Source: an uncultured archaeon
GTDB taxonomy: Archaea > Altiarchaeota > Altiarchaeia > IMC4 > SCGC-AAA252-I15
DNA length: 64,000 bases
Assembly (NCBI GenBank): GCA_964587725.1
Contig: CAZPLO010000002.1
Span: 25,521-89,520, forward strand
Direction of reading: 5' to 3'
Shown: positions 15,887 through 27,024 of the stretch, one piece after another
How the letters are laid out: every line of letters starts with the position of its first letter
Position numbering within the stretch: the first letter of the stretch is position 1
The notes under the pieces: generated by a model
The model's database searches: none
Told to the model about the DNA's origin: nothing
What the model saw: the letters and a program-made list of their open reading frames with translations, nothing else
Made by a program: the position numbers and the translations under genes

Positions 15887-15961
15887 GGGCTGGTGGTCTA
15901 GTCTGGTTATGACATCGCCTTTACGAGGCGAGGATCCCCGGTTCGAATCCGGGCCAGCCCA
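15887..15961 (+). tRNA. tRNA-Val(TAC)
   Basis: Acceptor GGGCTGG/CCAGCCC-A, anticodon arm TCGCC-TTTACGA-GGCGA, T-arm CCCGG-TTCGAAT-CCGGG; CCA not encoded. Confidence 0.97.
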
Positions 15962-23812: not shown

Positions 23813-26376
23813 TCGCCTATCCTCTCCAGCAGCGCCTCATGCATCCTCCGTATGAACTCCCGCCTGTCCTCGGTGCGGAGTACGTCCATGTAGCCCCTGC
23901 CTATGAGGTTCAAGGCGAACGGCGTGGGTATGTCCGTGTTGATTTCAACCACATCTATCCTGCCGGCTGTTATCTTCGCCAGCACTTCGGCGGCGCTTTT
24001 GATGTCCATCAAATCCTCGAAGACTTCCCGGCGGGCCTCCTCGAGTATGGGGAATTTCTGGTCCAGTTTTTTCACGAAGCTCAGCAGTATCCTGCCCCCC
24101 ATCTGCTGCCGTCCCACGCTCTTACGGCGGCCCTTATAATTTCGGAGTATCATCATGGCGCGGGCTGCGCAGTGGCGGAAACGGCGCATAAGTACTTCTG
24201 TCTTGTCCACGGCCTCAACCAGCATGCTGCGGAGGTTGTTTTCGTTCAACTGTTTGAAGGCGTTGTATGCCTGTACCTTCCCATTCAACGTCAGGTAGAA
24301 TCCGTTGTCCGACAGGCTTATGGCGACGTTCTTCCGCTCCTTCCTCGATATGATGTATGCGACGGCTCGCGACAGCGCGTCGTTGACGCGGCGGCCGAAC
24401 AAACTGTGGAACACTATATATCTCTTCTTGAACGCCTTGTTGTATTCTATCACAATCCGTTTGTCGTGCGGTATCACCGAGTAACGGTACTGTTCGCGGA
24501 AGTACTGGTATATGCTGTTGACTGCGTTGTCGTCCGCGTACAAGTACTCGTGGAGCCACTTCTTCACCTCCGCTTCGGGCTTGTCCATCCGCTCCTCCAT
24601 CAGCCGTCTGAACCGCTGAATCTCCATCGCCAGCCCGTAGCTTAATGGGAGGCTCTCGCTCGCCCACGAAGGCACCGTCGGCGGCCCCGCATCTGGTTTC
24701 ACGTGGCAAGTCATGCCGCGGCAGTAGTGAAACCGGTAGATTTTACCGCCCAACACGAAGATGTCCCCTTTGGTGAGTCTCTCCAGAAAGGCTTCATCTA
24801 GCTTCCCCACCATCTGGTCCCCGACCTTCACCTTCACGAACGACTCGTCGGGGATGGTGCCGATGTTGGTGCTGTATATGGGCCGCGCCAGCCGCCCCCG
24901 CTTACCCATCAACCCCGTGTCCTCGTCCACCCAGATTTTGGCGTACACGCTCCGCTGCTCCAGTTCCGCGTAGTCCCCCGCCAGATAGGATATGACGCTG
25001 TCGAAGTCCTCCCGCTTCAAATTCCGGTAGCAGTAGCTGCGTTTCACCGTAGCGTACACGTTTTCCACGTAGTCTCTCCCGGAGATGGCTGTCGCGTATA
25101 TCTGCTGCGCCAGCACGTCTAAGCAGTTTTCCGGGATGTCTATCTCGTCTATCCTGCCTTCGACCGCGTTCTTCAGCAGCACGCTGCATTCCACCAGGTC
25201 ATCGCGGTCCAACACGATTATTCGGCCCTTGGCTTTGTCGTGCAGCCGGTGGCCGGACCTGCCTATACGCTGCAGCGCCCGCGAAACGCTTTTAGGAGAA
25301 CCCAGGAGGACTACCAGGTCTATGTATCCGATGTCTATGCCCAATTCCAGGCTGGTGGACGACACAACCACCTTCAACTCCCCCCTTTTCAGTTTCTCCT
25401 CCACATCGAGGCGGTGGTCAGCGCTCAACGAGCTGTGGTGGGCGCCGACGTTCTCCATGTATTTGCCTGGGAACTTGGTCTTCAAGTGGTTTATCACCCG
25501 TTCCGTGCCGGAGCGGGTGTTGGTGAACACCAGTGTCGTCTTATGCTGCTGTATGAGGTCGTCAAGGAGGTTGTAGAGGCTGTTCTGCATGTGCTCCTGG
25601 CTCGACGACACCATGTTCGACACCGGACACAACACCTTGATGTCCAGTTCCTTCGCGTATCGGACGTCCACTATACGGCAGTCACGGGGCTTCCCCCTCT
25701 CGTATCCGACCACGTACTCCGCAATCTTGTCTAGGGGGTTTATGGTGGCGCTCAACCCTATGCGGGTGAACCTGCCTGCGAGGTTCTGCAGGCGTTCAAC
25801 GCTCAGACTCAGGTCGACGCCGCGCTTGTTTTCCGCGAGGGCGTGGACTTCGTCCAGGATGAGCCACTTCAAATCCTTCAGCTTCTGGCTGAACTTCGGC
25901 GACGCGAGAATCAACGCCAGGCTCTCCGGCGTGGTGATGAGTATGTGCGGCGGCGTCTTCAGCATCCTGGCCCGCTGGCTGGTGGGTGTGTCGCCTGTGC
26001 GGACCATCACCCGTATGCCCAGGTCCTTCCCGTGGAGTTCCTCCAGTTCCGCGAGCGGCTCCTCCAGGTTACGGTGTATGTCGTTGTTCAACGCCTTCAA
26101 CGGGGACACGTACAGGCAGTACACCTTGTCCTCCAGGCCCCCCACCAGAGATTGCTCGATGAGCTTGTCCAACACGCTCATGAACGCCGTCAGCGTTTTA
26201 CCGCTGCCTGTTGGGGCGGACACCACCGTGTTCTTCCCGTGCATGATGTTCGGTATCGCGTGCAGCTGCGGCGGCGCGAACTCACCGTATTTTTCGCCGA
26301 ACCACCGTCTCACCAGCGGATGCAGCTCCTTCAGTATCGCATCCCTCGGATACGGCTCCTTCTGAAACTCTACCAT
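23809..26376 (-). CDS. lhr: ATP-dependent Lhr-type SF2 helicase
   Basis: APTGSGKT, SPLKAL, TTPESL, DEVH, LELGID, QRIGRSGH, IGTIPD. Start at MVEFQ, 24 nt after a TTTTATA box. Confidence 0.93.
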   Translation of the reverse strand: MVEFQKEPYPRDAILKELHPLVRRWFGEKYGEFAPPQLHAIPNIMHGKNTVVSAPTGSGKTLTAFMSVLDKLIEQSLVGGLEDKVYCLYVSPLKALNNDIHRNLEEPLAELEELHGKDLGIRVMVRTGDTPTSQRARMLKTPPHILITTPESLALILASPKFSQKLKDLKWLILDEVHALAENKRGVDLSLSVERLQNLAGRFTRIGLSATINPLDKIAEYVVGYERGKPRDCRIVDVRYAKELDIKVLCPVSNMVSSSQEHMQNSLYNLLDDLIQQHKTTLVFTNTRSGTERVINHLKTKFPGKYMENVGAHHSSLSADHRLDVEEKLKRGELKVVVSSTSLELGIDIGYIDLVVLLGSPKSVSRALQRIGRSGHRLHDKAKGRIIVLDRDDLVECSVLLKNAVEGRIDEIDIPENCLDVLAQQIYATAISGRDYVENVYATVKRSYCYRNLKREDFDSVISYLAGDYAELEQRSVYAKIWVDEDTGLMGKRGRLARPIYSTNIGTIPDESFVKVKVGDQMVGKLDEAFLERLTKGDIFVLGGKIYRFHYCRGMTCHVKPDAGPPTVPSWASESLPLSYGLAMEIQRFRRLMEERMDKPEAEVKKWLHEYLYADDNAVNSIYQYFREQYRYSVIPHDKRIVIEYNKAFKKRYIVFHSLFGRRVNDALSRAVAYIISRKERKNVAISLSDNGFYLTLNGKVQAYNAFKQLNENNLRSMLVEAVDKTEVLMRRFRHCAARAMMILRNYKGRRKSVGRQQMGGRILLSFVKKLDQKFPILEEARREVFEDLMDIKSAAEVLAKITAGRIDVVEINTDIPTPFALNLIGRGYMDVLRTEDRREFIRRMHEALLERIGD

Positions 26377-26409
26377 AGCGCTTTTAATACGACATTCCAA
26401 TATAAAACC

Positions 26410-26528
26410 GAGGGGTGGATGGTTCGGCCGTCAACAATTTGTAACCGGGTCCGCGACCGACATCCGAGCAATACATGACGTTGCCGGCGGGGCGGACATC
26501 CAATGTAAAACGCATGAACCAGCCCCTC
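26410..26528 (+). ncRNA. Candidate structured non-coding RNA (rod with central bubble); strand not certain
   Basis: Nested inverted repeats fill the interval between the lhr and dUTPase promoters (detailed in findings). Confidence 0.5.
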
Positions 26529-26574
26529 ACTTCTTCTCAAGCACTTTTTATATGGTGTTTCACACCCTGTAACC

Positions 26575-27024
26575 ATGGCTGAAATACTGAAGGGCAATGA
26601 TGCGGCATCCATGGTGTCGGAGGTCGTCCACATGGAAACGCAGGTTAAGGAAAACAGCATAGACTTGACGGTGTCCGAGGTTTATGCGCTTGAAGGGAAG
26701 GGGGCGCTGGACTTCGGAGGCAGCGAGTACACGGAACCACGGAGGGGCAGGCTGCAGCCCGTCAAGGAGGGCGACGACGAATACGGGTGGTGGGATTTGA
26801 AGCCCGGCACCTACCTGATAACCTTGAACGAGGTCGTCTCAGGGCTGAAGGGCGTGGGGTTCCTGTCGCCGCATCCCAGATTGTTGAAGGCGGGGGCCAC
26901 GCATCCGACGCTGTTCACAATGGAGTGGAAGAAAGACTACATACTGCCTATAGAGGTGAGTATGCAGGGTTTGAAGATCAAGGAGAACGCCCGCGTGTCG
27001 AAGCTGATGGTACTCCGTCTCTGA
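26575..27024 (+). CDS. dCTP deaminase / trimeric dUTPase family protein
   Basis: QV-x2-NSIDLTV, LKPGTYLITLNE and ENARVSKL. Confidence 0.8.
   Translation: MAEILKGNDAASMVSEVVHMETQVKENSIDLTVSEVYALEGKGALDFGGSEYTEPRRGRLQPVKEGDDEYGWWDLKPGTYLITLNEVVSGLKGVGFLSPHPRLLKAGATHPTLFTMEWKKDYILPIEVSMQGLKIKENARVSKLMVLRL

Follow-up and report, generated by a model that had tools for sequence, protein, structure and literature searches.

The question raised by this locus is what occupies the gap at 26377-26574 of a 64,000-nucleotide (nt) stretch of contig CAZPLO010000002.1 from an uncultured archaeon of the Altiarchaeota (the whole stretch is here called the window, and positions are counted from its first letter). 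The gap separates a divergent Lhr-type helicase gene from a weakly dCTP-deaminase-like open reading frame (ORF). An earlier reading made from the letters of the window (the sequence-only reading) had placed here an independently transcribed non-coding RNA (ncRNA) of unassigned class, rod-shaped with a central bubble, and not a 5' untranslated region (UTR). Comparison with related genomes bears this out: the element has sharp edges of conservation, a TATA-like octamer upstream in 19 of 19 genome copies, covarying helices, neighbours that are unlike from locus to locus and no match in Rfam, all of which point to a separately transcribed RNA. Positions 26410-26530 of the plus strand very probably represent a real structured RNA gene.

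The stems proposed for the element were found where they had been placed, namely GAGGGG (26410-15) with CCCCTC (26523-28), (T)GGTTC (26420-25) with GAACC(A) (26516-21) and GTCCGC (26449-54) with GCGGAC (26492-97), and TGTAA was present on both sides of the bubble (26440-44 and 26504-08). The minimum free energy (MFE) fold of 26410-26528 reproduced the nested rod. Comparison with shuffled controls, a failure of which had been named as a ground for rejecting the element, gave a modest result for the window sequence, which folded better than most dinucleotide shuffles (z = -2.05, with 6 of 200 doing equally well; z = -1.69 for the minus strand), and a strong one for 16 homologues from related genomes (z = -2.8 to -5.9, with 0 of 200 shuffles as good in 13 of the 16). 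As the window value is modest, chance is excluded by the relatives and not by the window sequence alone. The consensus structure, read from base to tip, consists of a terminal stem P1, a variable 5' linker, P2 with a 2-bp extension, an open bubble, P3, a purine-rich loop, P4 and a variable apical hairpin, and the parts of the gene are distributed as follows.

26382-26389, plus strand: TATA-like promoter element of the RNA gene, TTTTAATA, a 7/8 match to TTTAWATA that ends 21 nt before the first G
26410-26530, plus strand: predicted mature RNA of 121 nt, from GAGGGG to CCCCUC-AC; covariance-model matches span the full length in every homologue
26410-26416, plus strand: 5' strand of P1, GAGGGGU, pairing with 26522-26528 (7 bp, first two pairs invariant)
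26421-26428, plus strand: 5' strand of P2 and its extension (GGUUC, an unpaired G, then GC), pairing with GAACC at 26516-20 and GC at 26512-13
26429-26448, plus strand: 5' strand of the central bubble, 20 nt, CGUCAACAAUUUGUAACCGG, with conserved CAAC and UNAAC motifs
26449-26454, plus strand: 5' strand of P3, GUCCGC, pairing with 26492-26497 (6 bp)
26455-26456 (5' side, GA) and 26488-26491 (3' side, CGGG), plus strand: purine-rich 2x4 internal loop
26457-26487, plus strand: upper arm, made up of P4 and the variable apex; both-side changes in 3 of 3 P4 pairs
26466-26478, plus strand: motif GAG-N7-UGA resembling a kink-loop (K-loop), GAGCAAUACAUGA, with which a plain hairpin GCAA/UUGC competes
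26498-26511, plus strand: 3' strand of the central bubble, 14 nt, AUCCAAUGUAAAAC, with a conserved (G)U(U)AAAAC motif
26512-26528, plus strand: 3' strands of the P2 extension, P2 and P1 (GC, AUG, GAACC, A, GCCCCUC)
26529-26530, plus strand: conserved unpaired 3' tail AC, present as CAC in 15 of 19 copies

By blastn, six related genomes were seen to carry the element (74-84% identity, nothing outside 26409-26531 being matched); similarity to these six starts exactly at GAGGGG, stops at CCCCTCAC and is lost in both flanks. Three successive covariance models were built for the homologue search, which placed the RNA in 19 genomes of the order, comprising 16 of the 21 genomes of the window's own family (10 of 11 genera) and three in two sister families (G023, G033 and G038; family f4 contributes one, in its sole genome, and family f5 two, both from a single genus and out of 22 genomes). 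Both f5 homologues were weak in score but architecturally convincing. In these two copies (L053:1501-1613 and L054:1501-1611) the GAGUC motif that is apical in the window's family was located within the bubble, on its 5' strand (GAGUCAAGGGCU...); a plain hairpin formed the apex, and P1 began GAAGG, not GAGG. No homologue was detected with the last model in families f3 (0 of 2), f7 (0 of 1) and f8 (0 of 4), nor, with the second model only and strict filters, in f2 (0 of 1), f6 (0 of 1) and f9 (0 of 8). Five of the 21 own-family genomes, which are 57-89% complete, gave no match, the last model having been applied to three of these five. The RNA was likewise not found in five non-Altiarchaeota archaeal genomes reached via their Lhr loci, and an Lhr-linked RNA in other phyla was rejected, the RNA being present at only two of 30 Lhr loci searched, both of them from Altiarchaeota. 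By these comparisons the element is the founding member of an RNA family so far seen only in Altiarchaeota-type archaea.

A multi-copy miniature inverted-repeat transposable element, which had been set as a possible refutation, was not what emerged. The element was present once in its own genome by blastn, the models gave one forward-strand match per genome, and an exact-pattern scan returned two further copies on metagenome contigs and none on viral contigs. The exception to the single match was a weak second one in G008 (E 0.65), and this, together with a weak match in G029, was judged false, both being without a TATA box and poorly folded. Sibling RNAs with similar ends were also considered: a scan of the genome for GARG...CYTC-AC ends combined with a TATA box yielded five candidates, of which one was the element itself and another was read as the start of a signal-peptide ORF, the remaining three being assumed to be chance occurrences.

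The check for covariation among homologues from related genomes came out clearly in favour of the fold. In an alignment of 18 sequences fitted to the model's structure, 94.1% of cells were standard pairs. Shuffling the partners gave 77.0%, none of 500 shuffles reaching the observed value, and sliding them by 1-3 columns gave 41-50%. Compensatory changes on both sides were observed in 20 of 23 pairs and in all four helices. P1 was paired in 100% of cells with both-side changes in five of seven pairs, P2 and its extension in 87.7% with changes in six of seven, and P3 in 97.2% with changes in six of six. The exchanges in P1 can be read directly from the raw sequences, which include GAGGGAG/CUCCCUC, GAGGAGG/CCUCCUC, GAGGAAG/CUUCCUC and GAGAGAG/CUCUCUC. 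A 15-sequence alignment fitted in the same way gave 95.0% paired cells and both-side changes in 17 of 23 pairs, and RNAalifold applied to a plain MAFFT alignment of seven sequences recovered P1 to P4. Coding capacity was not indicated: no reading frame was open in all copies, stops were present in all six frames in 7 of 19, and homologue lengths varied from 109 to 131 nt through indels that are not multiples of three. A small ORF starting at AUG 26420 was rejected, as the AUG is unconserved and no frame is open across homologues.

A plus-strand start near 26410 had been proposed from a TATA element at 26382, and the homologues agree with this. In 19 of 19 genome copies, the strand of the element carries an octamer that agrees with TTTAWATA in at least 6 of its 8 letters and ends 21-25 nt before the first G; of random positions taken from these loci (n = 3800), 10.6% do so. 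Matches at 7 or more of 8 positions were found for 12 of 19 copies and 1.3% of random positions. Because this spacing is fixed and conservation has a sharp 5' edge, transcription is predicted to start at or next to the GAG of 26410. Thirteen G-U cells in the 18-sequence alignment would turn into A-C mismatches on the opposite strand, and the sole reverse-strand model match was far weaker than its forward counterpart (26 versus 78 bits, in G002). These G-U cells, the asymmetry of the model scores and the TATA element at a fixed distance in every copy argue for a plus-strand RNA and against a DNA cruciform. At the 3' end, the pyrimidine tract noted after 26528 is present in the window, but no consistent oligo-T terminator was found downstream of the homologues.

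The bubble had been described as open, and this agrees with the behaviour of the family. Its strands pair weakly (-0.3 to -4.8 kcal/mol) and in registers that are inconsistent across 15 homologues, for which reasons it is regarded as genuinely open. The parts adjoining P3 are variable; what is conserved is CAAC plus UNAAC in the 5' strand and, in the 3' strand, (G)UUAAAAC. With the same UNAAC-type motif in each of its strands the bubble is pseudo-twofold in appearance, which suits a protein reader. A helix between both UNAAC motifs was considered and set aside, since it is possible in some members but in differing registers.

Above the bubble, the upper arm is organized at family level as P3, the 2x4 purine loop, P4 (CCG at 26457-59 with CGG at 26485-87) and a variable apex. 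The apical pairing CCG-A-GCAA/TTGC-CGG of the sequence-only reading is indeed part of the MFE fold of the window sequence, and is unconserved in the family. The 5' side of the 2x4 loop was GA, GG or AG across homologues; its 3' side was CGGG or AGGG in G007, G014 and G023 after re-pairing by hand, with exceptions in G009 (AAUG, read by hand) and in genus g8 (AAUG or GAUG). A standard kink-turn (K-turn) at this loop, written GR/NGGG below, was rejected because the bulged strand is 1 nt short and position 1n is G in four members, and also because the base that would occupy position 2b covaries with a Watson-Crick partner. Apex sequences are genus-specific, yet each forms a hairpin. The K-loop-like motif, in the form GAG-N7-9-UGA, was found at the apex (positions 53-58) in 9 of 19 homologues across seven genera, and the genome encodes two L7Ae-family proteins as well as Cbf5. 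In the window the MFE fold uses the alternative apical pairing, not the K-loop.

The RNA was then compared with known classes. Searches used Rfam 15 (4227 models) at gathering scores, and at E<=10 on individual loci. No Rfam family matched within the element of the window at gathering score; at E<=10 the interval 26300-26650 gave a single chance-level match on the minus strand (eL15 leader, 15 bits against a cut-off of 33.7 bits), and 14 homologue loci gave nothing on the element. The Infernal search proposed with the original description thus assigned neither the window element nor these loci to a known family. Identity with signal recognition particle (SRP) RNA, ribonuclease P (RNase P) RNA or 5S ribosomal RNA (rRNA) was rejected, since separate loci for all three are present in the same genome, which holds 16S, 23S, 5S (76.3 bits), SRP RNA (158.6 bits) and RNase P RNA (48.7 bits) elsewhere. 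A box C/D small RNA (sRNA) was rejected as well: there are no terminal C (RUGAUGA) or D (CUGA) boxes or guide regions, and the ends form a Watson-Crick stem. The apex does resemble the K-loop of a C'/D' motif, with NGA, a 9-10 nt loop ending in (R)U, and GA capping a short stem (two members have CGAUGA, like a C' box), but differs from C/D K-loops in that the motif is absent from 10 of 19 members and that some can form a plain hairpin or tandem G-A loop instead. Y RNAs, which are bound by Ro60/Rsr, are rods of about 100-120 nt formed from paired ends, with a large internal loop, and work through protein binding. The present RNA is likewise a rod closed by pairing of its 5' and 3' ends and opened by a large internal loop; it differs in having no Rfam Y RNA match and no TROVE/Ro gene in its genome, Ro60/TROVE (PF05731) having not been found in this 92%-complete assembly while a Deinococcus control was positive. 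Every tested class, including those considered below, appears to fail on a defining feature and there is no Rfam match, for which reasons the element is filed as a new RNA family of unassigned class, on comparison of sequences; the novelty lies at the level of family and class, not of function.

What such an RNA might do was weighed among several explanations. The bubble strands could bind a target RNA bipartitely, in the manner of H/ACA RNAs or of snR30/U17, or could bind mRNAs as a trans-acting sRNA. The likeness to archaeal single-hairpin box H/ACA guide sRNAs, which belong to the Cbf5-Nop10-Gar1-L7Ae ribonucleoprotein, is considerable: a small rod with its own predicted promoter, a large internal loop enclosed between stems, a K-loop-like GA...GA apex in about half of members, a short unpaired 3' tail starting A-C, and genes for Cbf5 and L7Ae in the genome, the enclosed loop, apex and tail following the archaeal H/ACA plan as given in PMC7991803. 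Conserved single-stranded segments are moreover typical of seed regions. In the same source, the ACA box of archaeal H/ACA RNAs lies 14-16 nt from the top of the pocket, with a K-turn or K-loop 5-6 nt above it. Measured against these distances the present RNA does not fit, with 31 nt from the base of P3 (26497) to the tail (26529), and with 17 nt separating the top of the bubble (26449) from the GA motif (26466) above it, the 2x4 loop and P4 lying in between. The RNA is also about twice the usual size, the base after the AC tail varies so that ACA is present in only 5 of 19 copies, and the pocket residues beside the upper stem, on which H/ACA guide function depends, are the ones that vary among close relatives. 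The doubt expressed earlier about an H/ACA assignment was therefore well placed, since neither the ACA box nor the spacing conforms to the H/ACA rules. The pairing of bubble strands with rRNA or transfer RNA (tRNA) that had been suggested for checking was not borne out either. In one genome, complementarity to 16S, 23S and 5S rRNA and to the 9-kb rRNA operon region was no better than that of shuffles, and nothing beyond shuffles was obtained for tRNAs (14 from aragorn, a partial coverage), SRP RNA or RNase P RNA. A duplex site in 23S rRNA was discarded, as it pairs mainly with the variable part of the bubble 3' strand. The bubble 12-mer GCCGTCAACAAT or its complement has three further occurrences in the genome of the window, G000 (C7:42767, C9:17242 and C41:4735), where about 0.2 would be expected. 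They lie in coding-looking sequence without further similarity and with no second arm nearby, and in view of this context the recurrences were judged to be chance or codon bias. A base-pairing guide or chaperone is on this balance improbable.

A bubble that docks tRNAs or tRNA-like RNAs at their elbow through a double T-loop is less probable still. It is suggested by a striking likeness in layout to the specificity domain (S-domain) of archaeal RNase P RNA (P10/11, the J11/12-J12/13 double T-loop, and P12 with L7Ae K-turns): in both, an internal loop between stems carries a similar pentamer plus AC(G) on each strand, and the upper arm has a motif of L7Ae type. Some members have UGNNA on both strands, among them G000, G013, G004 and G018 with UGUAA (or UGUUA), and UAAAACG in the 3' strand is close to UGAAACG of the RNase P consensus in Rfam. 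The double T-loop module is defined by six near-invariant nucleotides, AGNNA...UGNNA, in PMC3664808, and by that definition it was rejected: only about 5-7 of 16 homologues (counted by hand) have [A/U]GNNA on both strands, and G002, G007, G009, G011 and G001 are without the supposedly invariant G on one or both. Unlike an S-domain, the RNA is free-standing with its own predicted promoter, and neither it nor its homologues matched an RNase P model at E<=10. The host RNase P RNA has recognizable C- and S-domain elements, the latter with AGAGA and UGAGA; as it keeps its own S-domain there is nothing missing for the RNA to replace, and a specificity domain supplied in trans was discarded. Bacterial 6S RNA is about 180 nt long and targets the sigma-70 holoenzyme, which is not known from archaea. 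A decoy of this kind, suggested in the sequence-only reading as an open-promoter mimic, in which the bubble mimics melted promoter DNA and captures the archaeal RNA polymerase or an initiation factor, would accord with a closed rod with GC-rich stems flanking a large central bubble (about 20 x 14 nt) that is A/U-rich and conserved in sequence on both strands, and with a single-copy, stand-alone gene under its own promoter; protein capture is possible in principle. The RNA differs from 6S RNA in its shorter length (109-131 nt), in giving no match to a 6S covariance model of Rfam, and in its invariant GAG/CUC end, GR/NGGG loop and K-loop-like apex, the last two without 6S counterpart, and nothing in the sequence points specifically to RNA polymerase; this explanation, which has little beyond the overall shape in its favour, is very unlikely. 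Slightly less probable again is a cis element, whether leader, 3' UTR or antisense of lhr or the dCTP-deaminase-like gene, or an inverted repeat acting in DNA as a protein-binding or recombination site. A divergent Lhr gene upstream in 7 of 15 loci examined, and the interdigitation of the RNA and lhr promoters in the window, by which mutual transcription interference becomes possible, speak for it. Against it, the upstream neighbour is another gene in the other 8 of 15 loci (homocitrate-synthase-like, eRF1, ScpB, PTPS or another), the downstream genes differ (M48 peptidase, PIN, AP endonuclease, GT4 or dCTP-deaminase-like) and are often convergent, on the opposite strand, and both flanking genes of the window have their own TATA box near the start codon; a DNA-level repeat is countered by the strand-specific features described above. 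On account of these varying neighbours the element is, by its genomic setting, a gene in its own right and not a leader. Least probable of all is a catalytic RNA, a new self-cleaving or other fold with the conserved bubble and purine-rich loop as its core: highly conserved unpaired nucleotides within covarying helices are typical of ribozyme cores, but no Rfam ribozyme matched at E<=10, there was no association with mobile elements, repeats or viral contigs, and nothing suggests a cleavage site.

The explanation preferred here, to which as a whole we give about an even chance, is an independently transcribed, stable and trans-acting ribonucleoprotein (RNP) RNA with a working bubble. The RNA would be transcribed alone, with the TATA box 21 nt upstream as its promoter and its first nucleotide at or beside the GAG, and would fold into a closed rod consisting of the 7-bp terminal stem with its 2-nt AC overhang, the second stem, the open A/U-rich bubble, the 6-bp stem, the GR/NGGG loop and the variable arm. 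The GC-rich stems, together with L7Ae where a K-loop exists, may form a rigid, nuclease-resistant frame, L7Ae presumably binding the apical K-loop in about half of members. The open bubble would be the working surface, read in a sequence-specific manner by a protein partner under a scaffold or decoy logic, and such reading is preferred to base-pairing of the bubble with rRNA or tRNA. Reading by a protein as the mechanism is a tentative proposal, somewhat short of an even chance. That the RNA represents a new class of archaeal RNP RNA, in which a permanently open, conserved bubble captures a protein or tRNA-like ligand in trans, is a bolder idea and an unlikely one.

Several points weigh against the preferred RNP explanation. 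Expression and both ends of the RNA are predictions from sequence; a search for sequencing runs gave four of DNA, all from a single study, and no RNA run with the locus. The paired percentages given above are inflated, since the 15- and 18-sequence alignments were fitted to the structure of the model. With the K-loop-like motif missing in 10 of 19 members L7Ae cannot be essential, and in several members, that of the window included, the nucleotides of the motif could instead adopt a plain hairpin or a symmetric tandem G-A loop. As for the protein partner, it is wholly hypothetical, no conserved neighbour gene pointing to one. As the complementarity searches covered one genome and stable RNAs only, an mRNA or a short bipartite target would have been missed. 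Finally, the family is, to judge from its failure to be detected in most sister families, either young or fast-evolving.

The genes flanking the RNA, and their promoters, are as follows.

26376 (start ATG), minus strand: lhr, with Pfam domains DEAD, Helicase_C, WH_Lhr and DEAD_assoc
26399-26407, minus strand: lhr TATA box, TTTTATAT, between the TATA box and the start of the RNA and outside the RNA
26545-26553, plus strand: TATA box of the DCD-like ORF, TTTTTATAT
26575-27024, plus strand: DCD-like ORF, Pfam DCD at 20.2 bits (E = 7e-4), below the 27-bit cut-off

The lhr start is supported by relatives that align from residue 1, and the nearest relatives of this Lhr (79-82% identity) are from Candidatus Altiarchaeota / Altiarchaeales. 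The downstream ORF had been labelled a dUTPase gene; a weak dCTP-deaminase/dUTPase-like character is all that could be retained of this label, its DCD score being below the cut-off. Both flanking TATA boxes were located near the start codons as had been reported, and since that of the DCD-like ORF lies about 21 nt from its ATG, the corresponding mRNA is probably leaderless. The RNA and divergent lhr promoters interdigitate over 26374-26410, with the TATA box of the RNA (26382-89, plus strand) 6 nt from the lhr start codon. From this arrangement it follows that initiation complexes of the two promoters should be mutually exclusive, which suggests transcriptional interference or coupling of the RNA and lhr. 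The genome from which the window derives measures 1.56 Mb. The sole Rfam match at gathering level in the 64-kb window was a tRNA gene at 15887-15961 (plus strand, 65.2 bits). The host RNase P RNA was identified at C1:97691-97888 (minus strand) as a local match of 198 nt with 48.7 bits, short of the 84 that Rfam sets as gathering score; the 23S gene (C1:98696-101556), on the same strand, ends about 800 nt upstream of it, so that the RNase P gene might be taken for a member or neighbour of the rRNA operon.

The Altiarchaeota are uncultivated archaea, a phylum not known to have a cultured member or a described ncRNA biology; a single literature search found nothing in print on their non-coding RNAs. 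The RNA described here fits no archaeal class considered, whether C/D, H/ACA, SRP, RNase P, 5S or tRNA, and the covariance models built from its homologues can be used to annotate it in new genomes. Should it guide RNA processing, it would amount to an H/ACA-like device that departs from the known ruler rules. Should a protein or a tRNA read its bubble, a new type of archaeal RNP would be at hand, and a conserved bubble that captures its ligand in trans would make the RNA, with an L7Ae-type K-loop as its frame, the functional equivalent in archaea of capture RNAs such as 6S, 7SK or those of Y type.

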